Shown: piece after piece, positions 35,500 through 62,181 of the stretch | Numbering within the stretch: the stretch's first letter is position 1 | Layout of the letters: the number at the start of each line of letters is the position of its first letter | Source: a virus | DNA: 64,000 nt | IMG/VR virus record: IMGVR_UViG_3300008050_007409 | Reading direction: 5' to 3' (one strand) | Program-made: the position numbers and the translations under genes | The notes under the pieces: generated by a model | Told to the model about the DNA's origin: nothing | The model's database searches: none | Seen by the model: only the letters and a program-made list of their open reading frames with translations

Positions 35500-36429
35500 A
35501 TGGAGAACCCACAGAACATGAGCACTCAGCAGATCCTCCGGACCCCGGCCTCTGACCTGGTCCCAGATCCCAAGACCCCCTTCGTCGACGTGAACGGCGT
35601 CTTCGACGACGCCCTCGACTACATCGTCCCCGGAGACATCCCGGTCCAGAACCTCCTCTTCAACAGCAAGCACGGCCTGGGCAAGACCCTGCTCTGCGCC
35701 CACCTGATCAAGAAGCTGGGCGAGAAGCTGGGGCTGGCCGTGCCCCTGGTCACCTTCGACTGCTCCGAGGACACTCGGGAGTGGGACCTCATCGGCATGC
35801 CGACCGTCCTGCCCGACGGCTCCACGGCCTTCCAGCTCGGACCCTTCCCGCTCGCCATCGACCTGGCCAACGAGGTCGGCTGCGCGGCGCTGCTCCTGGA
35901 AGAGATCAGCGCCCTGCCTCCCGGAGCGCAGAAGGTCTGCAACCGGATGACCGACTGGCGGAACGGCATCTACGTGGCACCGGTCGGTCAGATGTTCCGG
36001 CTCAACTCCGGTGCGACCCTGATCGTCCTGGCCACCATGAACCCCTCGGCCTACGGCGGCGTCTACTCGCTGAACCAGGACCTCCGCTCCCGCTTCGGCG
36101 AGGAGAAGCTGGACCCGCCCACCCGAGCCCAGATGGAGAAGATCCTCAAGAAGGTCTGCCCCTGGGCCAAGCCGGCGCTCGTCAAGCAGGTCGCCCAGCT
36201 CAGTGAGGAGACCCAGGCGGAGTCGCTCGAGTACAGCCTCAGCACCCGCGACATGGTCCAGCTCCTCCAGAAGATCCAGCGCAAGAAGGGCAAGCTGGAG
36301 TCGCCCCTCCGCCAGGTCATGCACAAGTTCGAGGGCACCGAGATGAACACCGTCGCCGACCGAATCGACGGCATCTTCGCCACGCGCCTCAAGTCGAACG
36401 TGCCTGGGCGTCGGGCCTCCCATGTCTGA
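35500..36429 (+). CDS. MoxR/CbbQ/NorQ-like AAA+ ATPase
   Basis: SKHGLGKT, DCSEDTREWDLIG, LLLEEI, ATMNP, LNQDLRSRF, STRD. Confidence 0.85.
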   Translation: MENPQNMSTQQILRTPASDLVPDPKTPFVDVNGVFDDALDYIVPGDIPVQNLLFNSKHGLGKTLLCAHLIKKLGEKLGLAVPLVTFDCSEDTREWDLIGMPTVLPDGSTAFQLGPFPLAIDLANEVGCAALLLEEISALPPGAQKVCNRMTDWRNGIYVAPVGQMFRLNSGATLIVLATMNPSAYGGVYSLNQDLRSRFGEEKLDPPTRAQMEKILKKVCPWAKPALVKQVAQLSEETQAESLEYSLSTRDMVQLLQKIQRKKGKLESPLRQVMHKFEGTEMNTVADRIDGIFATRLKSNVPGRRASHV

Positions 36430-38503: not shown

Positions 38504-38967
38504 TGCTCGAAGACCACCCCGTGATCAAGGAGTTCCTGAAGTGGCTCTACGATCCGCAACCTCATGGCTGGCCCACCTACGCCTCCTACACCGGCCTCGA
38601 GGGGTTGGAGTTCCGTCGCAGTCTGGAGGGGGAGCATCCCCACGTCGTCGAGACCTGGAAGCCCGGCGATGAGGAGGCTTGCGGGCAGATCTGCCTCGAC
38701 TGCGGTTGCTCCAACCACCAGCCCTGCGGTGAGGGCAACTGTCCCCACTGCGGGCCCTGGGCCTCCGGTCGCCAGATCGGCTGGATCCCCCAGAAGACCT
38801 GGGGGTTCCGCTGCGATGCCCAGACCCTCGAAGGTGACTGCCACTGGAGTCACCTCTCCGAAGGCGGCGATCCCCCCAACCCCTGCGGCGAGGCCAAGAA
38901 GTGCCTCAAGGGCAGGGACGACTACTACGGCTGCGCCGGGAAGGAGCTCAAGACGACATGCACCTGA
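38503..38967 (+). CDS. Cys-rich hypothetical protein
   Basis: MLEDHPVIK start coupled to the upstream stop. Confidence 0.55.
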   Translation: MLEDHPVIKEFLKWLYDPQPHGWPTYASYTGLEGLEFRRSLEGEHPHVVETWKPGDEEACGQICLDCGCSNHQPCGEGNCPHCGPWASGRQIGWIPQKTWGFRCDAQTLEGDCHWSHLSEGGDPPNPCGEAKKCLKGRDDYYGCAGKELKTTCT

Positions 38968-39704
38968 ACCGACTCGAATTCGACAGGAAGTTCCCTGGCC
39001 CGGTCCTGGGTCTCGATGAGGTGGGGACCGGAGCCATCGCCGGCCCGATCACCGTCTGCGGCCTGGTCCTGCCGGGCGACCCCGAGGTCGAGGAGCTGCT
39101 CTACAAGGCAGGGGCTCGGGACTCGAAGCAGCTCAGCCCCTCTCGAAGGGAGGCCATCGCCGAGCTGGTCCACGATCACTACGTCTGGCACTACATCGTC
39201 CAGGTCGAGGCCGTGGACTACAAGAAGGGCTGGATGGCCAGGCACCTGGACGACCTGTTCCGGCAGGTGTTGAACGAGGCCCTGGCTCGAGGCCCCGCGG
39301 TGAAGACCATCATCATCGACGGGGACCAGGACCGGGACCTCAGGGGCTACCACTTCCGGGCGATCCCCAAGGCCGACGACAAGTCCCTGACGGTCGCCTG
39401 CGCCTCCATCATGGCCAAGGTCCACCGGGACCGGCAGATGGCGGCCCTGGAGGGAGATCACCCCGGCTACGGCTTCGCCCAGCACAACGGCTACTGCACC
39501 AAGCAGCACAAGGAGGCTCTCCTCCGCCTGGGCACCGTCGACGGCGTGCACCGCGACAACAAGGTCACCAGACGGGTCAGCGCCTCTCGATCAGCGCTCC
39601 CGGAGGCGGAGCGGGACGGGGCTTGGACCTCGCGACTGCGCCGGAGGGAGTCTTCCGTCGCAGACGCTCGACGATTCCGTCCTGGTAGCGGAAGATTCCG
39701 TTGA
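38958..39704 (+). CDS. rnhB: Ribonuclease HII
   Basis: GLDEVGTGAIAGP, RDSKQLS, IIIDG, KADDKSLTVACASIMAKVHRD, YGFAQHNGY. Confidence 0.9.
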   Translation: MHLNRLEFDRKFPGPVLGLDEVGTGAIAGPITVCGLVLPGDPEVEELLYKAGARDSKQLSPSRREAIAELVHDHYVWHYIVQVEAVDYKKGWMARHLDDLFRQVLNEALARGPAVKTIIIDGDQDRDLRGYHFRAIPKADDKSLTVACASIMAKVHRDRQMAALEGDHPGYGFAQHNGYCTKQHKEALLRLGTVDGVHRDNKVTRRVSASRSALPEAERDGAWTSRLRRRESSVADARRFRPGSGRFR

Positions 39705-48821: not shown

Positions 48822-49313
48822 ATGCACGAAGAATATGCTGAGAAGTCCTGGGCCCGTGTTGACAAAACCGGCCCAGACGACTGCTGGCTCTGGGTAGGTA
48901 GCCGCCTCCCTAAGGGCTACGGACGCTTCTACCCTAAGTGGAAGATCAACGGTAAGCGATGTGGGTTCAATGCCCATAGAATCTCCTGGGAGATCAAGAA
49001 CAACCGTCCCGTACCTGAAGGCTTGGACGTTCTCCATACCTGCGACAACCCACCTTGTGTCAACCCTGCTCATCTGTTTCCCGGGACCAAGTCCGACAAC
49101 ATGCAGGACATGCTCAGGAAGGGACGTGGCGGCTATACCGGATCTCCGGGAGAGGCTCACCCTTCTGCCAAGCTCGTAGAGTCTGATGTCCTCGAGATCC
49201 GCCACCGCTGGGATGCGGGCGGGATCAGGCAGAGAGATCTGGCAGCCGAGTACGGAGTTTCCAGGGGGCTGATCGGTCAGATTGTCCGACGAGAATCCTG
49301 GAGTCACCTATGA
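48822..49313 (+). CDS. Free-standing HNH endonuclease with C-terminal HTH
   Basis: CWLWVG...AHRISW...VLHTCDNPPCVNPAHLFPGTKSDNMQD; QRDLAAEYGVSRGLI. Confidence 0.9.
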   Translation: MHEEYAEKSWARVDKTGPDDCWLWVGSRLPKGYGRFYPKWKINGKRCGFNAHRISWEIKNNRPVPEGLDVLHTCDNPPCVNPAHLFPGTKSDNMQDMLRKGRGGYTGSPGEAHPSAKLVESDVLEIRHRWDAGGIRQRDLAAEYGVSRGLIGQIVRRESWSHL

Positions 49314-50182
49314 CTCAGAGGTGGAGGGGTGGTCGAGATAGCTACCGACCTCTCGGGGAACCCATCGATACGTCGAAGTACGGCATAGAGGTGATCTATT
49401 CGGATAGGGTGGCTCGGGACTTCGTAGTTCAAGCCCATTATTCCGGTTCATACCCCGCGGCCCGCTTCCGGGTCGGGCTCTACCGGACCACCAAGTCCGG
49501 GGTCCCCGAGCTCGTCGGAGTGTGCGTGTTCGGAGTCCCTGCCCAGAACGCCTCGATCCCGAAGTGGTGCGGCATCCCCGCCGAGTGTGGGGTGGTCCTG
49601 AGCCGCTTCGTCCTGGTCGACGACGTACCTGCGAACGGCGAGACCTGGTTCCTGGCCAAGAGCTTCGCCGCCCTACTCCAGGGCCTGCCCCAGATGCTCT
49701 CGGTCCTGAGCTACAGCGACCCGGTGCCGAGGACAGCCTCGGACGGCCGGATCGTGATGCCTGGACACGTTGGGACGATCTACCAGGCCTTCAACGGCGT
49801 CTACCACGGCCGCTCCAAGAAGGAGACCCAGTGGTTCGGCCCAGACGGTCGGCTGTTCGATCGCCGCAGCTTCAGCAAGATCCGCAACGGCGAGGTCGGT
49901 GCGGTGGCGGCCTACGAACGTCTGATCGCCCGAGGAGCTCCGGCCAAGACGCCGAGCGAGAGCTGGGCCGCGTACATCCTCCGAGCCAAGGAGGTCTTCC
50001 GCAAGGTCCGTCACACAGGCAACCACGTCTACACGTGGGCGCTGGTCCCCCCTTTCGACGACCTCGGACGAGGGACTCGGAAGAAGGCTCGCCGCGCCCA
50101 CCGGGGTGCGCTTGAGTACCTGAGTCCCGCGCCGGAGCCGCCGGCGCCCTACCCCAAGATCATCGACACCGTGGAGGCTTGA
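49310..50182 (+). CDS. Mom-like DNA adenine modification enzyme (GNAT fold)
   Basis: FVVQAHYSGS, LVGVCVFG, LSRFVLVDDVPANGETWFL, LSYSDP, GHVGTIYQAFN. Confidence 0.8.
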   Translation: MTQRWRGGRDSYRPLGEPIDTSKYGIEVIYSDRVARDFVVQAHYSGSYPAARFRVGLYRTTKSGVPELVGVCVFGVPAQNASIPKWCGIPAECGVVLSRFVLVDDVPANGETWFLAKSFAALLQGLPQMLSVLSYSDPVPRTASDGRIVMPGHVGTIYQAFNGVYHGRSKKETQWFGPDGRLFDRRSFSKIRNGEVGAVAAYERLIARGAPAKTPSESWAAYILRAKEVFRKVRHTGNHVYTWALVPPFDDLGRGTRKKARRAHRGALEYLSPAPEPPAPYPKIIDTVEA

Positions 50183-50439
50183 TGGAGAAGTTCGGAGATC
50201 ACCCTGGCATCACCGGCCAGCTCGCCAAGATCGGAAGCATGACCCCGGAGGAAGCAGCTGAGGCTGTCCGAGAGGCCTACCGCACCGATCCAGTCATCCG
50301 AGCCTGTTTGGACACGGGGGCCAACTCTGACCAGATCGTCCTCGTCCTGCTCTCGCTCTACAACGAGCTGCAGGAGAAGCACTTCGATCTCATGAAGAAC
50401 GCAATGTGGCCTCAGATCATCATCCCCAAGGAGACCTGA
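50182..50439 (+). CDS. Hypothetical protein
   Basis: 85 aa. Confidence 0.55.
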   Translation: MEKFGDHPGITGQLAKIGSMTPEEAAEAVREAYRTDPVIRACLDTGANSDQIVLVLLSLYNELQEKHFDLMKNAMWPQIIIPKET

Positions 50440-50741
50440 TGACCGACCGACAGCTGCTCCAGGAGACTCTGAAGTTCCCGGTCAAGCAGAGCTGCACCTT
50501 CTGGGGCGGCGGCGTGGTGGGCTGGCTCCCGGAGAAGATCCTGACCCGCTTCGGTTGGTCCTGGGTCACCTTGCGGGACGGCGCGGAGGCTGACCACAAG
50601 AAGGTTCTGATCAAGAACTTCCCGTCCGAGGTCGAGCTGCAGCTCGAGGACGCGCCTCCCTGGCTCGGCGTCTGGCTGTTCATCATCATCGACAACACCT
50701 TCCACCTGACCATCAACCACCTGGCGTTGCTCTATCTATGA
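50439..50741 (+). CDS. Hypothetical protein with DUF3307-like C-terminal membrane segment
   Basis: PPWLGVWLFIIIDNTFHLTINHLAL. Confidence 0.5.
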   Translation: MTDRQLLQETLKFPVKQSCTFWGGGVVGWLPEKILTRFGWSWVTLRDGAEADHKKVLIKNFPSEVELQLEDAPPWLGVWLFIIIDNTFHLTINHLALLYL

Positions 50742-51022
50742 AGATCAAGATCTTGCTCATGTCCGCTGAGGGCGACTACCTGGACCACACGTTCAAGGTG
50801 GCATCCCTCGAGGGTACAGAGAACGAGTGGTCCCCAGGACACATCGCTGACGAGCTCCCCAACCACTTCAAGGGGATCTGCAAGGCGGAGGCAGAGACAG
50901 CGGATCAGGGCGTCAAGCTCATCCTGCACCTGGACCCGGCGCCGGACTCGATCCGCTGTCGCATCTTCCTGCTGTGCTTCGCTTCCTTCGTGACGACCCT
51001 CTGCGACCGGATCTGGGCGTGA
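50738..51022 (+). CDS. Hypothetical protein
   Basis: 94 aa, coupled. Confidence 0.55.
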   Translation: MKIKILLMSAEGDYLDHTFKVASLEGTENEWSPGHIADELPNHFKGICKAEAETADQGVKLILHLDPAPDSIRCRIFLLCFASFVTTLCDRIWA

Positions 51023-51879
51023 AGGAAGTCCGACTCCTGGACTGGGACATCATCTTGATCTCCGTGAGTGGAGGCAAGGACTCCCAGGTGATGCTGGATG
51101 AGATCTATGTCCAGGCCAGCGAGCTCGGAATCCTCGACCGCCTGGTCGCCGTGCATGCAGATCTCGGAAAAGACGTGGAGTGGCCCGGCACCAGCGAGCT
51201 CGTGGAAGAGCAGTGCGCCCACTACAACGTCCCCCTCCACATCGTCACCCGGATCGGAGGCATCGCTGCCAAGACCGGGAAGACCTACGAGAAGGGGGAA
51301 GAGTACGGCGACCTGACCGACTACGCGGAGCGTCGCGGCTCCTGGCCAGACAGTCAGAACCGCTGGTGCACCTCGGAATTCAAGCGGGCCCCTATCCAGA
51401 AGCTGATGACCCAGGTCGCTCGCGAATGGCGTGAGCGCACCGGTCTGAAGCGAGCCTGCCGGATCCTCGACTGCATGGGCTTCCGCTCAGAGGAGAGCCC
51501 CGCCCGGAGGAAGAGGGAGGTCTTCAGCCGCCGCACCAAGGTCTGTACAGGCCGGAAGGAGGTCTGGACCTGGCTCCCCATCCAAAAGTGGACCCTCGAC
51601 CAGGTCTGGACTCGGATCAAGGCTACCGGCGTCCGCTACCACAAGGCCTACGACCTCGGCATGCCGCGCTTGAGCTGCGTGCTCTGCATCTTCGCACCAA
51701 AGAAGGCCCTCATCCTCGCGGGCAAGCACAACCGCGAGATCCTCGACTACTACGTGCTGGTGGAGAAGGCCACAGGCCACACCTTCCGCCAGGACGTGAC
51801 CCTTGAAGAAATTCAGCGCGCCGTGATCGCCGACGAGGAAGTCGGGAAGATCGAAGACGGCGGCGACTGGAACATGTAG
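51019..51879 (+). CDS. PAPS-reductase/DndC-like PP-loop enzyme
   Basis: SVSGGKDS, RWCTSEFK, GFRSEESPAR, LPIQKWT, RLSCVLC. Confidence 0.85.
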   Translation: MKEVRLLDWDIILISVSGGKDSQVMLDEIYVQASELGILDRLVAVHADLGKDVEWPGTSELVEEQCAHYNVPLHIVTRIGGIAAKTGKTYEKGEEYGDLTDYAERRGSWPDSQNRWCTSEFKRAPIQKLMTQVAREWRERTGLKRACRILDCMGFRSEESPARRKREVFSRRTKVCTGRKEVWTWLPIQKWTLDQVWTRIKATGVRYHKAYDLGMPRLSCVLCIFAPKKALILAGKHNREILDYYVLVEKATGHTFRQDVTLEEIQRAVIADEEVGKIEDGGDWNM

Positions 51880-51886
51880 GAGATCA

Positions 51887-52270
51887 ATGAATCCACCTAT
51901 CGACTGGCTCGGAGAGACTCCTTGGGAGACCATCGCCGCGGCCTACGACGAACAGTGCCCTGACGGCTACCCGATGCAGCTGACCGGCGAGGACGCAGAG
52001 GTCGCCACGGAGGCCGTCAACCAGGGCATCGACTCTCGGCTGGAGGCTGTGACCTTCGTCGAGGAGCCGGGCTGGAGGAACACCCACCCGACGCTCGGCT
52101 TCCCCAAGCTGCACATGAAGCTGGACCGTCACGGTCTGCTGATCTTCTTGCGCCGCCTCTACGAGTACAACTACGGCGAGGCCGTCGACGAGGACGATGA
52201 GTCCCGTGGCGACCGCGCCTGCAACCTCCGAGGGGCGATCTTGCAGACCCTCGGGATCGAGGAGGACTGA
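51887..52270 (+). CDS. Hypothetical protein
   Basis: 127 aa, SD AGGAG. Confidence 0.65.
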   Translation: MNPPIDWLGETPWETIAAAYDEQCPDGYPMQLTGEDAEVATEAVNQGIDSRLEAVTFVEEPGWRNTHPTLGFPKLHMKLDRHGLLIFLRRLYEYNYGEAVDEDDESRGDRACNLRGAILQTLGIEED

Positions 52271-52647
52271 TGTCCGACTGCAGACACAACCGAGGACGCC
52301 ACCTGGTAGGACACCAGATCAAGGCTGGAGATCTACTCCTCTTCTTCGAGTGCCAAGACTGCGGCACCAACGGTTGGTACCAGCTTGAGGACTCCCATAT
52401 CGAGTGGGAGGAAGATGACCACGAGTGCGATGAGACCTGCGCTCGTCACATCTCGACCTGCGACGGGAACTGTGACCACCTGGACGGAGAGAACGCCTGC
52501 GTGAACCTGGCCCGCATGGGGCAGGAGAACATCAGCAACTGCCTCCTTGCCTACGAAGGCGTGGAGGTCCACCCCGATCACGGACCCTGCCAGATGTGCA
52601 ACGGGTCTTGCCCAGACAAGGAGCGGCTCAATGCCCGGAACGACTGA
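52270..52647 (+). CDS. Cys/His-rich hypothetical protein
   Basis: 125 aa. Confidence 0.55.
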   Translation: MSDCRHNRGRHLVGHQIKAGDLLLFFECQDCGTNGWYQLEDSHIEWEEDDHECDETCARHISTCDGNCDHLDGENACVNLARMGQENISNCLLAYEGVEVHPDHGPCQMCNGSCPDKERLNARND

Positions 52648-53074
52648 GGACTTCAAGAAGGCCCGCCTCGGATCCACTGTGATGGAGGCTTGCGAAGTCT
52701 GCAAGCTCCCTACCGGCGACACCCTGTTCAAGAAGCGGGGGAAGCCGAACGGCCCTGAGTACGTCGGCCCCATGCACCTCGTGGTCAAGGACGCTCGCTG
52801 CGAGTTCTGCCACTTCCTGGGCATGTGGATGGCTCACGAGAAGGTCGATCCGACCGAGACCGGCCTCAAGTACGGCGCCTCCAAGATCGTGACCCGCGAC
52901 CCGAAGTCGGGCGTGGACACCCTGGTGGCCTTCGTCCCCTTCAGCTCGGAGGAGGACGTGGCCAAGACCCTCGCCGACGGAACCGAGTTCTCGTTCGCCC
53001 ACGGCATGCTGCTCCGGGCGGAACGCGACGGAGAGGGCATGAAGCTCATGGAGATCCTCGAACGTGGAACTTGA
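52631..53074 (+). CDS. Hypothetical zinc-finger protein
   Basis: CEVC...CEFC. Confidence 0.55.
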   Translation: MPGTTEDFKKARLGSTVMEACEVCKLPTGDTLFKKRGKPNGPEYVGPMHLVVKDARCEFCHFLGMWMAHEKVDPTETGLKYGASKIVTRDPKSGVDTLVAFVPFSSEEDVAKTLADGTEFSFAHGMLLRAERDGEGMKLMEILERGT

Positions 53075-53519
53075 CACCAGCCAGGAGGCCCGCTGGCTCT
53101 CCTGGGACCAGATCGACCTGGTCGACGGCTACGTGGAGGCGGAGCTGGAGGACCAGAAGGCCCACCCGGAGCTCCGCGACGAGATCAAGACCGAGGAGCA
53201 GATCCGCACGGAGACCTGGGAGGACCAGGAGTTCTTCACCATGGCTTGGGAGGGGATGCTGGAGATCCTCACCGAGTGGATGGGCGACGACACCGAGTGG
53301 CACTGCGAGGTCGAGAACTTCGGCTGGCGGAGTCTGAACGGAGAGAAGGACTTCCAGGCCGACGACGGTTCGACTCTGCTCTGCGAGACCCTCCCGGATA
53401 CCAACTGCACCTTCAACATCTGGAAGGGTGAGGATCCCAAGCGGCTCCGCATCCAGAACTTCCATCACGACTCGGCGACCGGTCGGGAGTGGTACACCTT
53501 GACCGTGAGGACTGAATGA
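53064..53519 (+). CDS. Hypothetical acidic protein
   Basis: NFGWRSLNG...HHDSATGRE. Confidence 0.65.
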   Translation: MELDTSQEARWLSWDQIDLVDGYVEAELEDQKAHPELRDEIKTEEQIRTETWEDQEFFTMAWEGMLEILTEWMGDDTEWHCEVENFGWRSLNGEKDFQADDGSTLLCETLPDTNCTFNIWKGEDPKRLRIQNFHHDSATGREWYTLTVRTE

Positions 53520-53713
53520 CGGACGAACAGCTGGAGACTCTCCACAACCTGATCGAGGCGCTGAGTCACGCGGCCGTGGGGACCGTCACCTACCAGACCA
53601 TCGTGGATCACATGGGCGAGGAGGCCATCCCGGACATCCAGGAGGCCTTGGACGACCTGGCCGAGGCGACCAGCAACCCCGACCCCGCCCTCGACATCAG
53701 CGAGCTCATCTGA
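53516..53713 (+). CDS. Small hypothetical protein
   Basis: 65 aa, coupled. Confidence 0.6.
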   Translation: MTDEQLETLHNLIEALSHAAVGTVTYQTIVDHMGEEAIPDIQEALDDLAEATSNPDPALDISELI

Positions 53714-54261
53714 TGCTGATCGGACTGATCGGAGTCAAGCGGAGCGGGAAGGACACGGTCGCTGACTACCTGAAGGAGCAGTACGGCTTCTGGAAGGAGG
53801 CCTTCGCGGCCAAGCTCAAGGAGATCGCGAAGGACCTCTGGGACCTCTCCGACGAGCAGGTCAACGGGACGACCGAGCAGAAGGAGACCGTCGATCCGCG
53901 CTGGGGCAAGTCCCCTCGAGAGCTGATGCAGCAGCTGGGCACGGAAGTCGGACGGACCTGCCACGACGAGACCTGGATCTGCTACCTGATGCGCCACGTC
54001 GACGGTGCTCTGGAGATGGGCGCCAACGTGGTCATCACGGACGTGCGCTTCAAGAACGAAGCCCGTGCCGTGCTCGCCGCCGGAGGGGCTCTGGTCCGAG
54101 TCGCCCGCCCAGGATTCGACGGCGACGCCCACGCCTCCGAGCAGAAGCAGATCGCCGTCGACTTCACCCTGGCGAATGACGGAGACCTGGACCACCTGTA
54201 CCGGGAGGTGGATCGCTGTCTGCAGATCCTCCGCGACATGCCTCCAGGGGAGCGCTCTTGA
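53713..54261 (+). CDS. Deoxynucleoside monophosphate kinase (T4 gp1-like)
   Basis: IGLIGVKRSGKDT, FAAKLK, SPRELMQQLGTEVGR, ITDVRFKNE, HASE. Confidence 0.9.
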   Translation: MLIGLIGVKRSGKDTVADYLKEQYGFWKEAFAAKLKEIAKDLWDLSDEQVNGTTEQKETVDPRWGKSPRELMQQLGTEVGRTCHDETWICYLMRHVDGALEMGANVVITDVRFKNEARAVLAAGGALVRVARPGFDGDAHASEQKQIAVDFTLANDGDLDHLYREVDRCLQILRDMPPGERS

Positions 54262-56267
54262 CGCCGAACGCCAGATCCCACGTCTTCAAGGACGTCCACT
54301 TCTTCGGAGGTTCTGGGGGCGGTGGGATCGGCTTCAAGAACGGGCACGCCCGCGTCGGCCGGTCCCAGGCCCGGTTCGAGAGCATGGGCAGCATCGACGT
54401 AGACCCCATCGCCTGCAGGGACTTCGAGCAGAACGTCGGTGCGCCGGCGCACGCCGTCGACCTGTTCACCAGGGATCAGTTCCTCCGCTTCCACTCGGCC
54501 TGCAAGCGCCGCTGCCGGGTCTGCAAGGGGAAGCGCGTGCCTCCGGACGGGTGGAGGGAGCTGCAGCCCTCCGACCTCCGCCACATGTTCCGGCAGGTCT
54601 TCCCGGACGTGATCTTCTTCAGCCCGCCGTGCAAGGGCTTCAGCGCTCTGCTCAACCCGGCGACGGCGAAGGGGGTCAAGTACCAGGCGCTCAACGAGCT
54701 CGTGACCCGCGCCTTGTTCCTCGCGATGGAGGCCTGGGGCGACAACCCTCCGGCACTGATCATCATGGAGAACGTGCCGCGCATCCGGATCCGGGGCGTG
54801 CACCTTCTGGACATGGTCCGCTCCCTGCTGCACAGCTACGGCTACGCGGTCCGGGACCACGACCACAACTGTGGCGAGATCGGCGGCCTGGCCCAGAACC
54901 GGCAGCGGTTCCTCATGGTGGCCAGGCATAAGGAGAAGATCCCCCCGTTCCTGTACCAGCCGCGCAAGCAGCGGGTCCGCGGAGTCGGGGAAGCCATCGG
55001 TGAGCTGCCCATCCCCGGCTTCGGTGCCGGCGGCTCCATGCACCGTCTGCCCAACCTGGAGTGGATCACCTGGCTCCGGCTGGCCCTCATCCGGTCCGGG
55101 AAGGACTGGCGCGACCTCCACGACCTGGAGATGGACAAGGACGGCGAGTACCTGAAGAACGTCGGGATCGTGCCCATGAAGACCTGGCACAACAGCGTCC
55201 TGGGCATCAAGGACTGGGAGGAGCCCGCAGGCACCGTCACCAGTCGATCCTCGCCCACCACAGGGGCCTTCGCCGTCGCAGACCCCAGAGCCTCGACAGC
55301 CTGGGGAGGCAAGAGCAAGTACCGGATCACCCGCTTCGACGAGCCCTCGGGCACCGTCATCGCAGGGAGCTCCACCGGGAACGGTGCCTTCGCCGTCGCC
55401 GACCCCCGCATGGGGCGCATGGGCAAGTACAGCGGGAAGATGCGAGTGGCTCCCTGGGAGAAGCCCGCACGGACCGTGACGACCTCTGACCGTGTCGGCT
55501 CCGGGGCGATGTGCATCGCCGACCCCAGGACCAAGGACTACAAGAAGTTCTGCTCCCTCGGAGTCCTGCCGCTGGACAAGCCCGTAGGCACCGTCACCAG
55601 CCGAGCTGCTCACGGGTCCGGCTTCTTCTCCATCCCCGACCCGCGGCTCAACTGCGACGTCGACGACAAGAAGTCCCGACGCTTCAACAACGTCTACCGG
55701 ATCGTGCGCTTCGATCAGCCGGTCCAGGCCGTCACCTCCGGCATGACCCCGAGCGCTGGAGGACAGGCCATCGCCGACCCCCGACCGCTCTGGTCGATGA
55801 AGAAGACGGCCTTCCGGTCAGGAGGCCATTACGGGATCATCCCCTGGTTGGACCCGTCCGGTACGATCTCCGCCCACGCGAAGCTGGATCGAGGCAAGTT
55901 CTGCGTCGCCGACCCTCGGGAGCTGCCCGGACCTCGGGAGAACTGCAGGCCTCTGATCATCAGCCTGGACAACACCTGGCACCGGCCACTGACGTTGCTG
56001 GAGCTCATGGTGCTGCAGGGCTACCCGATCAACGCCGTCTTCGGCGGTGCCGCAGCCGTGGTACGTGAGCACGTTGGGAACAGCGTCCCGCCACCGGCGG
56101 CTCAGGCCATCGCGAACCGGATGCTGGAGACGTTGCTCCTGGCAGCCCTCGAGGAGACCTGCTTCATCACGGACAAGGACGTGTGGGTGCAGCCTGATCC
56201 CCTACCTGTTCTGCTGGGCTTCGCAGACCCTGATGAAGTGAAAATCGGGGTAGGATCTACTCTATAA
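54258..56267 (+). CDS. C5 cytosine DNA methyltransferase with six internal repeats
   Basis: FFGGSGG, SPPCKGFS, MENVP, QNRQRF, HRPLT..E...LQGYP, VGNSVPP. Confidence 0.9.
   Translation: MTPNARSHVFKDVHFFGGSGGGGIGFKNGHARVGRSQARFESMGSIDVDPIACRDFEQNVGAPAHAVDLFTRDQFLRFHSACKRRCRVCKGKRVPPDGWRELQPSDLRHMFRQVFPDVIFFSPPCKGFSALLNPATAKGVKYQALNELVTRALFLAMEAWGDNPPALIIMENVPRIRIRGVHLLDMVRSLLHSYGYAVRDHDHNCGEIGGLAQNRQRFLMVARHKEKIPPFLYQPRKQRVRGVGEAIGELPIPGFGAGGSMHRLPNLEWITWLRLALIRSGKDWRDLHDLEMDKDGEYLKNVGIVPMKTWHNSVLGIKDWEEPAGTVTSRSSPTTGAFAVADPRASTAWGGKSKYRITRFDEPSGTVIAGSSTGNGAFAVADPRMGRMGKYSGKMRVAPWEKPARTVTTSDRVGSGAMCIADPRTKDYKKFCSLGVLPLDKPVGTVTSRAAHGSGFFSIPDPRLNCDVDDKKSRRFNNVYRIVRFDQPVQAVTSGMTPSAGGQAIADPRPLWSMKKTAFRSGGHYGIIPWLDPSGTISAHAKLDRGKFCVADPRELPGPRENCRPLIISLDNTWHRPLTLLELMVLQGYPINAVFGGAAAVVREHVGNSVPPPAAQAIANRMLETLLLAALEETCFITDKDVWVQPDPLPVLLGFADPDEVKIGVGSTL
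55210..55920 (+). repeat. Six ~40-aa protein repeats in the methyltransferase variable region
   Basis: [WFL]..P..TV.......G....[AP]DPR x6. Confidence 0.8.
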
Positions 56268-56310
56268 GCAGGTGAGACAGGAACCCCTGTTTCCGGTCTT
56301 GGAGGACCAC

Positions 56311-56469
56311 ATGAACATCTGGATCGACATCGGTCTGGTCGGCGTCGTCATCGCCGGCATCGCTGCCCTCATCTCCGAATGGCCCCGCATCGCGGAGGTC
56401 CTGGACGAGCTGGAGGAGCGGGAGACCGCCCGGATCAAGAAGCAGATCGAGGAGGTGCCCGGTGAGTGA
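56311..56469 (+). CDS. Small membrane protein
   Basis: MNIWIDIGLVGVVIAGIAALI, SD GGAGG. Confidence 0.6.
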   Translation: MNIWIDIGLVGVVIAGIAALISEWPRIAEVLDELEERETARIKKQIEEVPGE

Positions 56470-56719
56470 GAGCAAGGCGGAGCGACTCGCCCGGTTGATC
56501 GAGCTCCCGGTGCCGCTTGCGGTGCTGGAGGTACGGCGAGCGGCGTTCGAGGCGGTCCACATGGCAGCTCACGCAGGTGAGCTGGTTGAGGTCGACGACT
56601 TCATCCAGACGGCGCTCATCCAGGGCGACGAGCACGCCCTGAAGCAGGGCTACTCCGATCGGGCGTGGGCCCTGGAGCGGGTGGCCAAGTGCGTGGCGAA
56701 GATCACCTGCTGGAACTGA
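56462..56719 (+). CDS. Hypothetical protein
   Basis: 85 aa, SD GGAGG. Confidence 0.6.
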   Translation: MSESKAERLARLIELPVPLAVLEVRRAAFEAVHMAAHAGELVEVDDFIQTALIQGDEHALKQGYSDRAWALERVAKCVAKITCWN

Positions 56720-56892
56720 CGCCGAACCTACCCGGCCGGGATGAGGGCCGGGCAGTCCTCACGGACTGACTTTCCCCGTAGATCCTCGATCCCCAGGTCG
56801 AGAAGTACAAGATCTTCCTGCCCAAGTGGGCAACCAGCAAGCTCAGCATCGCCACGGCGATCTGGTTCTTCGGGACCTTCGTCGCGTCGTCC

Positions 56893-57219
56893 ATGGAGGC
56901 TGAGGTCTTCGACGACATGCCGACCGCGTGGATCTCGAAGCTGTCCGAAGCCGCCGCCTATGGTGCGGCCGGTGCCATCGGTGCCGAGGGCTTCGACGTG
57001 GCCCTGCACGTGGTCAAGAAGCTCCTGGTCGAGGTGAACAAGCACTTCCGCGAGTACGGGCTCGAGCTCGACCAGGAGGGCAACTTCAAGCAGGTCGCCG
57101 GCCCCGTGGAGGGTCAGCTGGACCTCTCCACCCTGCAGGAGGAGCTGGCCGAGATGCGAGCCGAGATGGAGAAGATGAAGGCAGAGAACGTCGTCGAGCT
57201 CCAGACCAAGGCGGGCTGA
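56893..57219 (+). CDS. Hypothetical protein (start uncertain)
   Basis: Frame is open and coding-like from 56782; first ATG at 56893. Confidence 0.55.
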   Translation: MEAEVFDDMPTAWISKLSEAAAYGAAGAIGAEGFDVALHVVKKLLVEVNKHFREYGLELDQEGNFKQVAGPVEGQLDLSTLQEELAEMRAEMEKMKAENVVELQTKAG

Positions 57220-57341
57220 CGAGAACCGGCCCTCGGGCCGGCGGCAGGGAAACCTGCCGACTTCGCCTGTGGATCATCGCATAAGACTCTGATCGCCAAA
57301 CACTCGTGTGCAGGCTGATCGCAACCACGGAGGTGCACAAC

Positions 57342-57614
57342 ATGCACTCACTCGAATTGCTCGAACAGCGCGTCCTCAATGCGCTCGACGAGAATGTCAA
57401 GACGACCGAGAAGACAGTCCGACGCCCCCGACTCATCCCCATCGTCGTAGACGGTCAGGTCTTCTGGGCATCGCCCCAGGGGCTCAAGATCCAGAACTAC
57501 GTCGAGACCCTCCGCGGCAAGGTCGTGGTCGGTGTCAGCTACGAGATCCTCAAGGACGGTGGCGTGGACAAGGTCGAGATCTCCCTGGAGACTGGGAACA
57601 AGGCCGCAGCGTGA
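57342..57614 (+). CDS. Hypothetical protein
   Basis: SD GGAGG; CATAAG motif upstream at 57280. Confidence 0.65.
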   Translation: MHSLELLEQRVLNALDENVKTTEKTVRRPRLIPIVVDGQVFWASPQGLKIQNYVETLRGKVVVGVSYEILKDGGVDKVEISLETGNKAAA

Positions 57615-57994
57615 ATCCCTTCAAGCAGCCCGGAGGTTGGGCTGACCGCATCAGTGCGAAGATCCGCGACGCGTGCAAGCCTTCCTGCCCTTGGGTCTAC
57701 CTGGGCGCCTGCGTCGAGCTGACCGGCCCGCTCATCAACTACATCACGGACGATGAGCGGGCTCAGCGGCTGACCTTCGAGGAGTTCAAGGAAGCCGGAC
57801 CTCCGCTGGAGGACGTCGCCAACGCCTTGGGCTACAGCAACGACCTCCCGCTGAGGACGGATCGGCATGTGACCTACTGGCGCAGCCAGCTCCCGCCGAA
57901 CCACCCCCACTACCCTGGACGGGAGATCCTGTTCCTGGACCACTCGCGGATCGAATACATCTGGGTCAGACGTACCCCTGGAGGAGAGGACTGA
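57611..57994 (+). CDS. Hypothetical protein
   Basis: GTGA coupling; DRHVTYWRS...HSRIEYIW. Confidence 0.6.
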   Translation: MNPFKQPGGWADRISAKIRDACKPSCPWVYLGACVELTGPLINYITDDERAQRLTFEEFKEAGPPLEDVANALGYSNDLPLRTDRHVTYWRSQLPPNHPHYPGREILFLDHSRIEYIWVRRTPGGED

Positions 57995-58155
57995 TGTTCG
58001 GACTGGAACACCTGGTGAATTGCCATGGCGAGTGGGCGGCCCTGTTCGCCCTGTTGGGGATGATCCCCTTCATCGGCCCGTGGATTCGCTCCAAGATCAA
58101 GCACAAGGAAGGCTGCGAGCACGAGCAGCACGACCACGACGAGGAGACGCCGTGA
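57994..58155 (+). CDS. Small membrane protein with His-rich tail (53 aa)
   Basis: Manual translation MFGLEHLVNCHGEWAALFALLGMIPFIGPW...HEQHDHDEETP. Confidence 0.55.
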   Translation: MFGLEHLVNCHGEWAALFALLGMIPFIGPWIRSKIKHKEGCEHEQHDHDEETP

Positions 58156-58766
58156 ACGACCTCGAGGCCCGGCAGAAGATCCGGGAGATCATGATGCAGC
58201 TATGCACCGACCTGCTCACCCAGTTCGGGTCGATGCGGAGGGCCGCGCTGGCTGAGAATCCTCGACCTGAGGACGACATGTGCTCCGTGCTCCCTCCCGA
58301 CCTGGGGATCATCAACCTCACGGAGGAGGGCATCCAGGTCGGGCAGCTCAAGCTCATCGGAGGAGCTCAGGACAGTCGGATGTTCGAGGCGGTGCTTCGA
58401 GAGGCTTCCCGACGCCACAAGGCCGACGCCACCTACATCGTCTGCGAGGGCTTCACGCGGCCCATGACCAGCGAGGCGGAGGTGGATCAGTACCGGAAGG
58501 AGCGGGAGGCTGGTGTCAACCTGAAGGACGCCAGCGTCGGTGGAGAGCCCATCGAGACCGTCTTCGTCCGCCTCAACGGCTTCGGGATGACCTTCATGGC
58601 TCAGTCCACCTTCAAGGACGACGGGGACATCGACCAGATCCAGTTCATCGAGGACGGGATCAAGAGGGAAGGCACCCGAACCGAGTCCCGGTTCGACAAC
58701 CTCGGCGTGGATGACAAGAGCTTGCAGATCCCCGAGAAGGACCTGCCCAGCGACGGCTTCCACTGA
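58152..58766 (+). CDS. Hypothetical protein
   Basis: GTG start with SD GAGGAG. Confidence 0.65.
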   Translation: MNDLEARQKIREIMMQLCTDLLTQFGSMRRAALAENPRPEDDMCSVLPPDLGIINLTEEGIQVGQLKLIGGAQDSRMFEAVLREASRRHKADATYIVCEGFTRPMTSEAEVDQYRKEREAGVNLKDASVGGEPIETVFVRLNGFGMTFMAQSTFKDDGDIDQIQFIEDGIKREGTRTESRFDNLGVDDKSLQIPEKDLPSDGFH

Positions 58767-59824
58767 TGGCGGAGTTCCTGCGGATCTTCCGCATGGGACT
58801 CGGACGTGACTCCATCGCGGGGCTCGGCCTTCTGGAGACAGTCGGCCTGCTCTGCGGTGGAGTGCTGATCCGCCCTGAAGACATCGACATCCTGGTCTTC
58901 ACCGACACCGGCGCCGAGTGGGAGAAGACCTACCAGGCCTGGCCCTTCATCAAGGCGATCTGCGACCGACTCGGCATCAGGGCCATCGTCCAGGAGAAGC
59001 CGGAGCTCGCAGCCCAGGCTGCCTGGCTCAAGGTCCTCGCCCCGGTCCGAGAGCGTCTGGCGGCCGAGGAGTCCGGCTCCAAGGCCTACTGGTCCATCCG
59101 GGCCGAGCTGCAGCAGATGGTCCCTCCCTGGCAGGTGGACGCCAGCGGCTCCATCGAGGAGAAGGCGGCCCGCGGCTACTACCACCGGCGCGTGGCCATC
59201 TTCGAGGACTACAAGTCCAAGGAGAGCCTGATCCGCTTCAGCGACGGCGGCTGCACGGAGAACCACAAGATCCTCCCGAACCGGCGGCTCCTGGATGACC
59301 TCTCGCAGGAGCGCTGGGGCTTGAACAACACCCAGTGGGGCAACCGGGTCAAGAAGGGCCTGGCCGAGCCCCACCAGGTCCTCCTGTTCATCGCCAAGGA
59401 CGAGTCCGGCCGCTGCATCGACGACCTGAACGAGAAGCCCTTCTACGAGCGCAGCGTCTACCCGCTGGTGGAGATGGGGATCGCCAAGGCCGACGAGCAG
59501 GCAATCCTGGACCGGATGGGGCTGGGCTGGGTGCAGAAGTCCGGCTGCGTCGGCTGCAAGTACCAAGGCGTGGAGCACTTCTGGGCGCTGTCCCAGGAGG
59601 AGCCTGTCGAGTTCGACCGCATCGAGGACTACGAGGACACCGCCGCCGACAAGAACCCCAAGATGGTCATCTTCCCCAAGATGAAGGGGAGGCCTCGCAT
59701 CCGTGAGGCTATTCGGAGGTGGCGCGAGGGCAGCCCCCTGGCCACCGTGAAGGGTGTCCTGGCCCGAGACTACAAGCGAAACGATCGACGGGGCCGACCA
59801 GCCCCGAGGAGCAAAGATGGCTGA
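58766..59824 (+). CDS. PAPS-reductase-like PP-loop enzyme, paralog A
   Basis: MGLGRDS, FTDTGAEW, CTENHKI, YPLVEMGI, KSGCVGC. Confidence 0.75.
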   Translation: MAEFLRIFRMGLGRDSIAGLGLLETVGLLCGGVLIRPEDIDILVFTDTGAEWEKTYQAWPFIKAICDRLGIRAIVQEKPELAAQAAWLKVLAPVRERLAAEESGSKAYWSIRAELQQMVPPWQVDASGSIEEKAARGYYHRRVAIFEDYKSKESLIRFSDGGCTENHKILPNRRLLDDLSQERWGLNNTQWGNRVKKGLAEPHQVLLFIAKDESGRCIDDLNEKPFYERSVYPLVEMGIAKADEQAILDRMGLGWVQKSGCVGCKYQGVEHFWALSQEEPVEFDRIEDYEDTAADKNPKMVIFPKMKGRPRIREAIRRWREGSPLATVKGVLARDYKRNDRRGRPAPRSKDG

Positions 59825-60239
59825 TGACAGCTGGCCCGACCGTCCGCCCCCTGGACCCTTCTACAGCAAGCACACCTTCAGGGGCTTGATCATCGGAGAG
59901 GAGGTGACGCTTCTCGCCTGCCCGCCGGGACCCATCCTCTACGAGGGTGTGATCTGCTGGCGGGTCAACGCTCGCTCCGAGCACGGGGTCGCCGCCTACA
60001 AGCCGGGCGGGGCCTTCATCGTCAAGAAGACGGTCGAGGAGCAGGAGAAGACCCTGGTGCGCCCGGTGCAGCTGTGCTCCGGCAAGCCACCTCGAGGCGA
60101 CGCTCCCCTCCACAAGCTCCTCTCGGAGATCGTGGACTTGACCACCGCACACACGGCCGATCCTGTCGGGATGGCCAAGATCTTCGGGCTGGCCTGTGAC
60201 GCCATCGCCCTCATCCAGAACACCAAGGAGCAGCCTTGA
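59817..60239 (+). CDS. Hypothetical protein
   Basis: MADDSWPD start with SD. Confidence 0.55.
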   Translation: MADDSWPDRPPPGPFYSKHTFRGLIIGEEVTLLACPPGPILYEGVICWRVNARSEHGVAAYKPGGAFIVKKTVEEQEKTLVRPVQLCSGKPPRGDAPLHKLLSEIVDLTTAHTADPVGMAKIFGLACDAIALIQNTKEQP

Positions 60240-60583
60240 ACGAACGCATGATCCTGGAGCGCGCCTGCGAAGTGGGCCTCCGCATCACCTTCCACGTCCA
60301 GGCCCGGTCGCTGCGCGACGCCGGCGGCCTCGGCTTCCCCGCCTTCACCCTGACTGAGTACTGTGGCACCATCGACGGCTTCATGCCGATCGAGATCCCG
60401 AAGGACCAGGCCAAGGAGCTCAAGACCTCCTTCGGTCAGGACTCCTTCAGCATGATCCTCAAGCTCGATGACGGCGTCGAGCACAAGGTCACCATCCCCT
60501 ACGCCTTCGTCTCGGCCATCCAGACTGTGCACGGCGTCCAGGAGTGGACGCCGAAGGGTCAGCAGATGAGCCTGATCCCTTGA
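60236..60583 (+). CDS. Hypothetical protein
   Basis: 115 aa; VTIPYAFVSAI. Confidence 0.6.
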   Translation: MNERMILERACEVGLRITFHVQARSLRDAGGLGFPAFTLTEYCGTIDGFMPIEIPKDQAKELKTSFGQDSFSMILKLDDGVEHKVTIPYAFVSAIQTVHGVQEWTPKGQQMSLIP

Positions 60584-60816
60584 GCGATGAGAAGCCGCAG
60601 GAGGAGGTCCGCGGAGCTCGTGGACACGACCTGCATCGAAAGCTCACAGGAGGTCGAGGAGGCGGGTACGCACCCACCCGCGCCTGCCTCAACCGCATCT
60701 TCGACAAGCTGACCACCCAAGAGGCGAACGTCCTCGACGAGGTGATCCGCTACCACCTGGAGGACGCTGAGCGTGACGGTCGCCGTGCCGCAGCCAGGCA
60801 GCCCTGGCGGCGCTGA
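60580..60816 (+). CDS. Hypothetical protein
   Basis: TTGA coupling. Confidence 0.5.
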   Translation: MSDEKPQEEVRGARGHDLHRKLTGGRGGGYAPTRACLNRIFDKLTTQEANVLDEVIRYHLEDAERDGRRAAARQPWRR

Positions 60817-61207
60817 GATCCCTCCGGGGCTCCTCGCAGAAGTCCTTGAGGCGATGCCGCACATCTTCAGCGTGTCCTGTGACAACCCGGTCGGGTCCTT
60901 CTTCGAGGTGATCGGAGACACTGGAGGTCACGGCCTCTGCGACCACGCAGTCCACGAGCTCATCGAGCTGCTGGGCCGCGGAGAGCTGGTCTGGATCAGC
61001 CTCGACCCCGAGTACCGGGCTGTGATGCACCCCCGACGCCTGGAGTGCCAGATCCCGTCCGACTACCCGACTCACTACGTCGAGGACCCGGATGAGGTCT
61101 GCCAGGACCACGCCGTTGCCTACGTCGACGACTGGCTCATCGATCTGACCGCCCGGCAGTTCGATCCCAAGTTCCCCTTCCCCTTCTTCTGGAGTCCGCA
61201 CCCATGA
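60773..61207 (+). CDS. Hypothetical protein, possible papain/transglutaminase-like C-H-D triad (start uncertain)
   Basis: GLCDHA...HAVAYVDDWLIDLTARQF. Confidence 0.55.
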   Translation: MTVAVPQPGSPGGAEIPPGLLAEVLEAMPHIFSVSCDNPVGSFFEVIGDTGGHGLCDHAVHELIELLGRGELVWISLDPEYRAVMHPRRLECQIPSDYPTHYVEDPDEVCQDHAVAYVDDWLIDLTARQFDPKFPFPFFWSPHP

Positions 61208-62181
61208 GCACCCCTGAGATCCCGCTGATCGCTCTCTCCAACGGAGGAGGTCGGGACAGCGCCACCCTGTGGTGCCTGGCCAAAGACGGGGAGCTGCTGA
61301 TCGACGGCGTGAAGCATGGCGTCGACGACCTGGACGCCAACGTCTTCTCTGACCCCGGCTACGAGTGGCCGCACACCTACACCGCGCTGATGGAGCTCCG
61401 ACGCAGGAGCACGCTGGCCGGTGTCCCCTTCTACTCTCTGGACAAGCCGCCAGAGGAGGAGTGGGAGGAGTGGATCAGTGAGCCGAGGTCCGGGACCGAC
61501 ATCCCGCCCTGGCAGGCTCGCCTGACGGACGAGAACGTCGCTGATCGGGCTGCAGGAGGCTTCTACCACCGCCGTGCGCCCATCGTGCAGGACTACACCC
61601 GCAACCAGAATGTGACCCTTCGGGCCAACGCAGGTTGCACCCAGAACCACAAGAGCCGGGTGATCAACCGCTGGCTGGACGACTTCGCCAAGGAGATCTT
61701 TGGGATTGGGAACGTAGGCTGGTCCCACCGAGTTCGGAAGGGTCTGGTGAAGCCTCACATCCTGCTCATCGGGATCGCAGCAGATGAGGCCTCCCGTGCA
61801 GAGGGGGCCGAAGGGCAGCTGGGTGTAGAAGCCTACGTCACCAAGAAGTACCCCCTCCTCGAGGCGGGCATCACCAAGGCGGACGAGGAGGCCATCCTCA
61901 AGCGCCACGGCCTGAACTGGATCCGCAAGAGCGGCTGCGTGGGATGCCACTTCCAGCCAGACGGGTGGTTCTGGGCACTGCGCGAGACGGAGCCAGAGCT
62001 CTGGTCTGAGATCGTCTCCTACGAGGCCCTGGCCTTGACCAAGAACGGGAAGCGCTTCCTCCGGGGAGACAAGCCCATCGACAAGGTCGTCGAGAAGTGG
62101 CGCAGGATCAACCCGCGTGCGACCATCGACGAGGTCCTGGACAAGAGCTACCTGAGAGGATGCGGAGCCGAAGATGCCTGA
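61204..62181 (+). CDS. PAPS-reductase-like PP-loop enzyme, paralog B
   Basis: SNGGGRDS, FSDPGYEW, CTQNHK, IGIAADEASR, YPLLEAGI, KSGCVGC. Confidence 0.8.
   Translation: MSTPEIPLIALSNGGGRDSATLWCLAKDGELLIDGVKHGVDDLDANVFSDPGYEWPHTYTALMELRRRSTLAGVPFYSLDKPPEEEWEEWISEPRSGTDIPPWQARLTDENVADRAAGGFYHRRAPIVQDYTRNQNVTLRANAGCTQNHKSRVINRWLDDFAKEIFGIGNVGWSHRVRKGLVKPHILLIGIAADEASRAEGAEGQLGVEAYVTKKYPLLEAGITKADEEAILKRHGLNWIRKSGCVGCHFQPDGWFWALRETEPELWSEIVSYEALALTKNGKRFLRGDKPIDKVVEKWRRINPRATIDEVLDKSYLRGCGAEDA

Follow-up and report, generated by a model that had tools for sequence, protein, structure and literature searches.

The stretch of DNA considered here, a 64,000-nucleotide window of the IMG/VR virus record IMGVR_UViG_3300008050_007409, carries three plus-strand genes for PP-loop proteins, designated PP1 (50974-51879 as the longest open reading frame (ORF)), PP2 (58766-59824) and PP3 (61204-62181), which place two branches of one superfamily side by side in a single phage, near a Mom-family gene and an apparently multispecific cytosine methylase. 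An initial annotation had listed a Mom-like enzyme, a C5 methyltransferase, a deoxynucleoside monophosphate (dNMP) kinase and three PP-loop genes within 13 kb, and all of these were recovered in place on the plus strand, the five nucleic-acid-modifying genes and the kinase being interspersed with ORFs lacking a family match (ORFans), to which most of the neighbouring genes belong in family searches. The same annotation had described the PP-loop products collectively as PAPS-reductase/DndC-like enzymes; the superfamily assignment holds, but the proteins are not of one kind, PP1 being CysH/BrxP-like and PP2 and PP3 NinC/PptA-like. Family searches drew on the Pfam, NCBIfam, PHROGs and PADLOC libraries, each ORF being searched with some of them rather than all, and small ORFs being partly covered.

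PP1, whose start is set at 51019 in the source record to give a protein of 286 amino acids, is a canonical PAPS_reduct PP-loop protein (PF01507, E 1.1e-15; phrog_424, E 1.4e-32) with the loop SGGKDS and the cysteine motifs CTSEFK and CVLC. Among PADLOC models it matches BrxP best (E 6.6e-22), followed by DndC (E 2e-8). Its AlphaFold2 model (predicted local distance difference test score, pLDDT, 94) is closest to two adenosine 5'-phosphosulfate (APS) reductases, 2goy (Z 16.4; 198 residues aligned, root-mean-square deviation (rmsd) 3.4) and 7lhr (Z 15.4), both of the [4Fe-4S]-containing type. The family comprises at least 1,415 database clusters, the listed matches all being stand-alone proteins of about 260-370 residues with PF01507, and the PP-loop and three cysteines are invariant in 24 relatives. 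PP1 is an ordinary member of this very large stand-alone phage PAPS_reduct family, which is known but uncharacterised.

PP2 (352 amino acids; phrog_424, E 5e-8; PADLOC SspD, E 2.8e-9) and its paralogue PP3 (325 amino acids; phrog_424, E 7.7e-23; PADLOC SspD, E 5e-12) belong to a NinC/PptA clade and share 35% identity. Their motifs are GLGRDS, CTENHK and KSGCVGC in PP2 and GGGRDS, CTQNHK and KSGCVGC in PP3, so that, as first annotated, both CT..[FH]K and CxxC can be read in the translations of all three PP-loop proteins. Neither PP2 nor PP3 matches a Pfam or NCBIfam model at E <= 0.01, and no Pfam domain is recorded for any of their listed homologues. At E <= 1e-3 PP2 has 224 homologous cluster representatives, 90 of which reach E <= 1e-30, with a best identity of 64%; PP2 itself retains every residue that is invariant in the family. 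These invariants include a GxGRDS loop, one residue longer than SGGxDS, and, across 20 relatives, the PP-loop together with three cysteines in CTxNHK and KSGCxxC; conserved insertions, among them a PPW...YHxR block, further distinguish the group. We reject a recent tandem origin of the pair, because a tree of 132 domains puts PP2 and PP3 into separate deep clades, with a last common ancestor spanning 111 of the 132 tips; they are therefore old paralogues or separate acquisitions.

The AlphaFold2 model of PP3 (pLDDT 91) has a PP-loop fold, of which about 160 of the 325 residues superpose on solved structures. The closest fold is the [4Fe-4S] tRNA thiolase NcsA (Z 11.7), followed by PAPS/APS reductases (Z 10-11.4); on entry 7rge the superposition aligns 162 residues (Z 11.4, rmsd 4.0). 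Foldseek searches of the PDB with PP3 returned weak matches only (TM about 0.3-0.5), and DndC, SspD and BrxP structures were not among the matches listed. In profile comparisons with hhalign, the PP2/PP3 profile is related both to lambda NinC (96.7% probability, E 4e-10) and to PP1 (96.9% probability), and NinC and PP1 are not similar to each other (3%). Among PDB sequences the profile matches PptA best (E 0.084), through the ADE..R block and the CVGC region, in an entry (21fy) that holds PptA together with E. coli IscS. PP2 and PP3 are placed in an unnamed, Pfam-less, NinC-like subfamily, rarer than the family of PP1.

Established enzymes of the superfamily were considered for each protein. 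As a CysH or APS reductase PP1 is rejected, since it scores 18-24 bits against curated cutoffs of 154-254 (TIGR00434, TIGR02055, TIGR02057, NF002537), including 24 bits against a cutoff of 165 on the cysH model TIGR00434, and PP2 and PP3 do not match the curated CysH/APS reductase models at all. The models of PP1 and PP3 do have the alpha/beta fold of PAPS reductases. A cysteine-bearing ECG[LI]H tail, the C-terminal catalytic-cysteine motif of sulfonucleotide reductases, was found in none of the three: PP1 has no cysteine after CVLC, the PP2 tail has none, and the RGCG of PP3 is non-conserved and missing in many relatives. DndC is likewise rejected for PP1 (TIGR03183, cutoff 290 bits, where a match of 91 residues reaches 29.8 bits) and gives no match to PP2 or PP3, although the DndC-style three-cysteine pattern C...CxxC is invariant in the families of all three proteins. 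SspD matches PP2 and PP3 in part (profile positions 111-220 of 277; 35-44 bits), with no SspB or SspC match among the window ORFs tested, and BrxP matches PP1 over profile positions 133-353 of 779, with neither DUF4007 nor another Brx match. On these profile scores and motifs none of the three proteins is a sulfonucleotide reductase, and none is a member of DndC, SspD or BrxP.

Partner genes were sought among the window ORFs tested, the remaining ~100 kb of the 165-kb contig lying outside these searches. No match was obtained there to sulfate-assimilation genes (cysD, cysN, cysC, cysI, cysJ), to dndA/D/E, to ssp genes or to brxC/Z/L, and neither a partner ATPase, nor a DNA-recognition subunit, nor a desulfurase was found. 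The initial annotation had recognised no sulfate-assimilation, dndA/D/E or ssp genes and had regarded the PP-loop enzymes as stand-alone; both statements agree with the library searches, in which the window ORFs tested likewise yielded no partner of the Dnd, Ssp, Brx or Cys type.

Of the 50,697 isolate phage records searched, 33 contain a match to PP1 and five a match to PP3, and the two sets do not overlap among the matches listed (eight PP1 records being unlisted), with one place per listed record. The occurrence of three PP-loop genes in one phage is therefore unusual, and homologues of both PP1 and PP2/PP3 mostly occur singly. One related locus has a PP1 homologue (51% identical) 2.7 kb from a PP2/PP3 homologue, as separate genes. 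None of the window neighbours of PP2 and PP3 recurs beside homologues in 30 related loci. The genes immediately upstream overlap the start codons of PP2 and PP3, and no homologue of these genes was found beside PP2/PP3 relatives; here the longest ORFs over-extend, at 57308-58766 and 60773-61207, the source record giving 57342-57614, 57611-57994, 58152-58766 and 60854-61207. Homologues of PP1 are likewise isolated among ORFans, and one has ArdA nearby. Directly downstream of PP1, there is a plus-strand ORFan of 127 amino acids (51887-52270) without a family match, whose homologue in a distant relative (L004/L005; 43% identity) lies 1.3 kb upstream of a PP2/PP3 homologue. In the window this ORFan is followed by a gene (52270-52647) for a 125-residue protein, very rich in cysteine and histidine, that also matches no family. 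Because no neighbour recurs, ORFans space the genes and homologues are mostly single, an obligate multi-gene machine is not supported.

The two branches are linked to each other, to Mom and to polyvalent proteins at the level of gene fusion. Domains of the PP2/PP3 type form part of proteins 0.8-3.3 thousand residues long that also contain InPase, ART-PolyVal, ddrB-ParB and methyltransferase domains, which are hallmarks of polyvalent anti-defence proteins, and PP1-type domains are likewise found inside polyvalent proteins. In five proteins both PP types stand together, and two of these proteins are compact (836 and 953 amino acids). One fusion protein (P0083) joins InPase, Mom, a PP2/PP3-type and a PP1-type domain in that order, another (P0126) combines a weak Mom match with a PP2/PP3 domain, and in a third (P0093) the two PP domains flank DUF5591, a domain of ArcS/TGT-type proteins. 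The two-sequence hidden Markov model used for Mom missed the Mom domain in fusions where Pfam detects it, so the counts of Mom co-occurrence are lower bounds. PAPS, PP-loop and Mom domains are unmentioned in the text of a survey of polyvalent proteins published earlier (Iyer et al. 2017, PMC5512222). The new elements of the present analysis are that both PP branches reside in one phage with Mom, and that Mom-PP-PP fusions exist.

Among cultured phages, the PP1 homologue gp103 of Pseudomonas phage Dolphis, annotated as a PAPS reductase, overlaps the start of the DNA methyltransferase gene gp104 (L035:3968-6584). In the same phage, gp104 is followed by a short gene, gp105, annotated as an adenylosuccinate synthase and possibly PurZ-like, and a MazEF pair lies upstream. 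In Arthrobacter phage Aoka (L032:3983-6931) the homologue gp36 lies 1-2 kb from gp40, and in Streptomyces phage Gilgamesh (L033:4887-7659) the homologue gp116 lies 1-2 kb from gp114, both neighbours being annotated as DpdA-like or queuine tRNA-guanine transglycosylase (TGT) genes. Together with the DUF5591 domain of P0093, these neighbours hint at a link between PP-loop genes and 7-deazaguanine DNA modification; tblastn searches with the Aoka and Gilgamesh DpdA/TGT genes found nothing in the window or in the 30 loci.

The Mom-like gene (49310-50182, plus strand) encodes a predicted GNAT-like DNA adenine modifier of 290 amino acids (PF25680, E 3.5e-19; phrog_1384, E 5.5e-22) whose 69.7 bits on PF25680 exceed the gathering cutoff of 27.1; a PDB sequence search with the protein gave no significant match. 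In a pairwise alignment with Mu Mom at 28% identity, the equivalents of H58/Y59, R111, D149 and Y159 are conserved, a threonine is aligned to S124, and the R151 position lies beside an 11-residue insertion. R111, S124, D149 and R151 are essential in Mu Mom, which transfers glycine from Gly-tRNA without a helper enzyme (PMC13219725). The window protein resembles Mu Mom in passing the family cutoff and, as far as this pairwise alignment shows, in most catalytic residues, and differs from it in its low identity, its threonine for S124 and its greater length with extra insertions; no com-like regulator was noted. It is probably active, and its most likely target is the N6 position of adenine in the phage's DNA, which Mu Mom modifies with glycyl-tRNA. 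Its start codon is overlapped by the end of an HNH endonuclease gene (48822-49313, plus strand; PF13392 HNH_3, E 1.9e-9), and an HNH_3 gene also stands next after the PP1 homologue in one related locus (L030).

Further downstream lie the dNMP kinase gene (53713-54261, plus strand; PF21448, E 1.9e-19; phrog_139, E 2.1e-50) and the gene for a C5 cytosine DNA methyltransferase of 669 amino acids (54258-56267, plus strand; PF00145, E 2.8e-18; phrog_116, E 7.7e-44). The methylase has a complete set of motifs in its translation (I FGGSGGGG, IV PPCKGFS, VI ENVPR, VIII QNRQRF, X GNSVP) and, between motifs VIII and X, six tandem units GTVTS...G.F..ADPR of about 40-50 residues each that resemble target-recognition domains. 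With such repeated target-recognition domains the enzyme is apparently multispecific and would methylate cytosine in several target sequences.

The window (64% G+C, no tRNA genes found) corresponds to about 96.7-160.7 kb of a 165,236-bp metagenomic contig, with a primase-helicase gene just past its end. The source is an uncultured, high-GC tailed phage of about 165 kb, and the 12.9-kb region with the modification genes is part of its accessory, replication-side arm; a near-identity DNA search with this region found no match among the 50,697 isolate phage genomes. A long minus-strand gene block reaching ~28.9 kb is presumably the virion module, and the plus-strand accessory and replication arm runs from ~35.5 kb. 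Between the two lies a CHAP/PG-binding lysin gene (33599-34426, minus strand), and the plus-strand arm opens with an AAA_5 (MoxR-like) ATPase gene, a 693-residue ORFan and an RNase HII gene (35500-39704).

The reading we favour, held at about even confidence, is that these genes are independent counter-defence modules rather than one pathway, and that the PP enzymes are probably ATP- and iron-sulfur (Fe-S)-dependent sulfur transferases acting on nucleic acid; the Fe-S cluster, the use of sulfur, the DNA target and the counter-defence role are what we infer, whereas the genes, their families, motifs, folds and fusions, and the failure to find partners in the window ORFs tested, are observations. 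The chemistry of PP-loop enzymes begins with adenylation of a substrate oxygen, which is then passed to a nucleophile; with sulfur, DndC, SspD and BrxP carry this out for DNA, and NcsA, TtuA, ThiI and MnmA for tRNA. The CT..K motif of the phage proteins sits at the CC..RK position of APS reductases, their CxxC appears to align with the cluster ligands of 2goy, and the solved entry that contains PptA as well as IscS suggests, by analogy, a sulfur relay. ATP-dependent, Fe-S-assisted sulfur transfer through a host desulfurase is proposed because of this combination of loop, CT..K, CxxC and the PptA-IscS entry. PP1, PP2 and PP3 would each bind ATP at the (S)GxG[KR]DS loop, the conserved cysteines of the C...CxxC pattern would carry an Fe-S cluster, persulfide sulfur would come from a host IscS-type cysteine desulfurase, and the enzymes would adenylate and then thiolate nucleic acid, most likely phage DNA, to give a backbone phosphorothioate or a thio-base. 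BrxP, DndC and SspD make phosphorothioate DNA (PMC12914056), and the phage would by such a mark escape or mimic modification-dependent immunity of the Dnd, Ssp or BREX type 4 kind.

A counter-defence role fits the polyvalent-protein context, the methylase overlap in Dolphis, the ArdA neighbour and the reported escape from Dnd, in which a Vibrio phage PAPS-Dam fusion and a neighbouring gene of unknown function, transferred together, allowed escape from host Dnd (bioRxiv 10.1101/2021.05.05.442762). The layered anti-restriction system proposed at the outset is borne out to this extent, as an anti-restriction role agrees with the fusions, the ArdA and methylase neighbours and the anti-Dnd report, but there is no sign that the genes form one system.

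Several points weigh against this reading. In the phosphorothioation systems described so far, the PAPS-reductase subunit depends on an ATPase and on a partner for DNA recognition, BrxC being essential (PMC12914056), and no such partner was found among the window ORFs tested, so a stand-alone enzyme would have to borrow host partners or run a different reaction; these partner negatives cover the window and not the other ~100 kb of the genome. The match to PptA is weak (E 0.084) and extends over about 100 residues, and Fe-S binding is deduced from motif position only. Since polyvalent proteins join many unrelated domains, fusion is no proof of cooperation. Finally, the top fold match of PP3 is a tRNA thiolase and P0093 carries DUF5591, so that the target could be RNA.

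That last point leads to the least improbable of the alternatives, though still an unlikely one, in which the PP enzymes act on RNA, for example by tRNA thiolation, and thereby shield tRNA from anticodon nucleases or retune translation. Besides NcsA as the best fold match of PP3, the matches include TilS, TtuA, ThiI and MnmA, and the DUF5591 domain between the PP domains of P0093 and the DpdA-like/TGT-annotated genes 1-2 kb from the Aoka and Gilgamesh homologues point in the same direction. The closest sequence families, on the other hand, are the DNA enzymes BrxP, DndC and SspD, the genes found next to them or fused with them encode enzymes of DNA (methylases, Mom, ParB), the window encodes no tRNA, and phage DpdA enzymes are known to have DNA, not tRNA, as their substrate.

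Rather improbable, in our estimate, is a single hypermodification pathway in which Mom adds an aminoacyl or carbamoylmethyl group to adenine and the PP enzymes then adenylate and convert this group, or else an atom next to it, much as QueC or nitrile synthetases do with carboxylates and amides, to yield a new hypermodified base. P0083 unites Mom, both PP types and a pyrophosphatase that would pull adenylation forward, P0126 adds its weak Mom match beside a PP2/PP3 domain, compact PP2/PP3-PP1 didomain proteins are known, and the fold matches include the PP-loop members QueC and the nitrile synthetase ArtA. Against this, BLAST, an insensitive test here, found no Mom in the 10 kb around most PP homologues, ORFans separate the window genes, Mu Mom works without a helper enzyme (PMC13219725), and polyvalent proteins routinely join unrelated effectors (PMC5512222). 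A broader proposal, which we would likewise back only as a long shot, is that the PP enzymes make an undescribed DNA mark, either by partner-independent sulfur insertion through host IscS or by stepwise adenine hypermodification with a Mom-type enzyme; the latter route is raised by the InPase-Mom-PP2/PP3-PP1 fusion together with the recurrent PP2/PP3-PP1 didomain proteins.

More doubtful still is a decoy or inhibitor role, in which the PP proteins would sequester IscS, DndD/E, SspB/C or BrxC, or compete with the DndC-type subunit, and leave phage DNA unmodified. The failure to find partners in the window ORFs tested, the shared entry of PptA and host IscS, and the anti-Dnd phenotype reported for a phage PAPS-domain protein would agree with it, but the invariance of the PP-loop, the CT..K lysine and the three cysteines across deep clades argues for catalysis over mere binding. 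A role as auxiliary metabolic genes of sulfate reduction (CysH/APS reductase) that boost host cysteine supply is very unlikely: the Pfam label PAPS_reduct and the APS/PAPS reductase folds of PP1 favour it, but the scores far under the curated cutoffs, the missing C-terminal catalytic-cysteine motif, the failure to find cysD, cysN, cysC, cysI or cysJ in the window, and the three divergent copies whose domains are elsewhere fused to Mom, methylase, ParB and ART speak against it.

Phage "PAPS reductases" are routinely annotated as sulfur metabolism, and we know of no biochemical activity for any of them; lambda NinC has, to our knowledge, gone without explanation for decades. With both superfamily branches in one phage beside Mom and a multispecific methylase candidate, and with fusion proteins tying both to Mom and to polyvalent anti-defence proteins, the genes described here can be put to the test as possible sources of new DNA chemistry and as a possible means of countering phosphorothioate-based immunity. 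Relatives in phages that can be cultured are available on both sides, namely Aoka gp36, PotPie gp2 and NS-I for the PP2/PP3 branch and Gilgamesh gp116 and Dolphis gp103 for the PP1 branch.

Among known systems, lambda NinC (lambdap64) and the PHROG 424 "PAPS reductase" family come closest: NinC, too, is a stand-alone phage PP-loop protein of unassigned function whose gene lies in an accessory region, phrog_424 matches each of PP1, PP2 and PP3, and PP2 and PP3 share with NinC the loop and the DTGxE..TY, CT..K..P, ADE..R and CxxC elements aligned by hhalign. They differ from it in the one-residue-longer GxGRDS loop, in insertions (PPW...YHxR) missing in NinC and in matching no Pfam model, and PP1 is not NinC-like. 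PptA (21fy), on which literature searches returned no relevant paper, resembles PP2 and PP3 as the best PDB sequence match of their profile, aligned at the ADE..R block and CVGC, although this match is weak (E 0.084) and partial. DndC, SspD and BrxP share the superfamily, the PP-loop and the cysteine motifs, BrxP being nearest to PP1 and SspD to PP2 and PP3 in PADLOC, whereas the window proteins are shorter, score far below these families, have no DUF4007 fusion and showed no DndD/E, SspB/C or BrxC/Z/L neighbours among the window ORFs tested. Polyvalent proteins contain PP domains of both types with InPase, ART-PolyVal, ddrB-ParB and methylase domains, whereas the window PP genes are solo. A functional precedent is offered by p0018 of Vibrio phage 44E38.1, whose transfer is the only functional test of such a protein found in the literature: compared by domain type only, its PAPS domain is fused to a methylase where the window has separate genes, and it shares with them a phage-borne PAPS-reductase domain, one that conferred escape from Dnd when acquired with its neighbouring gene.

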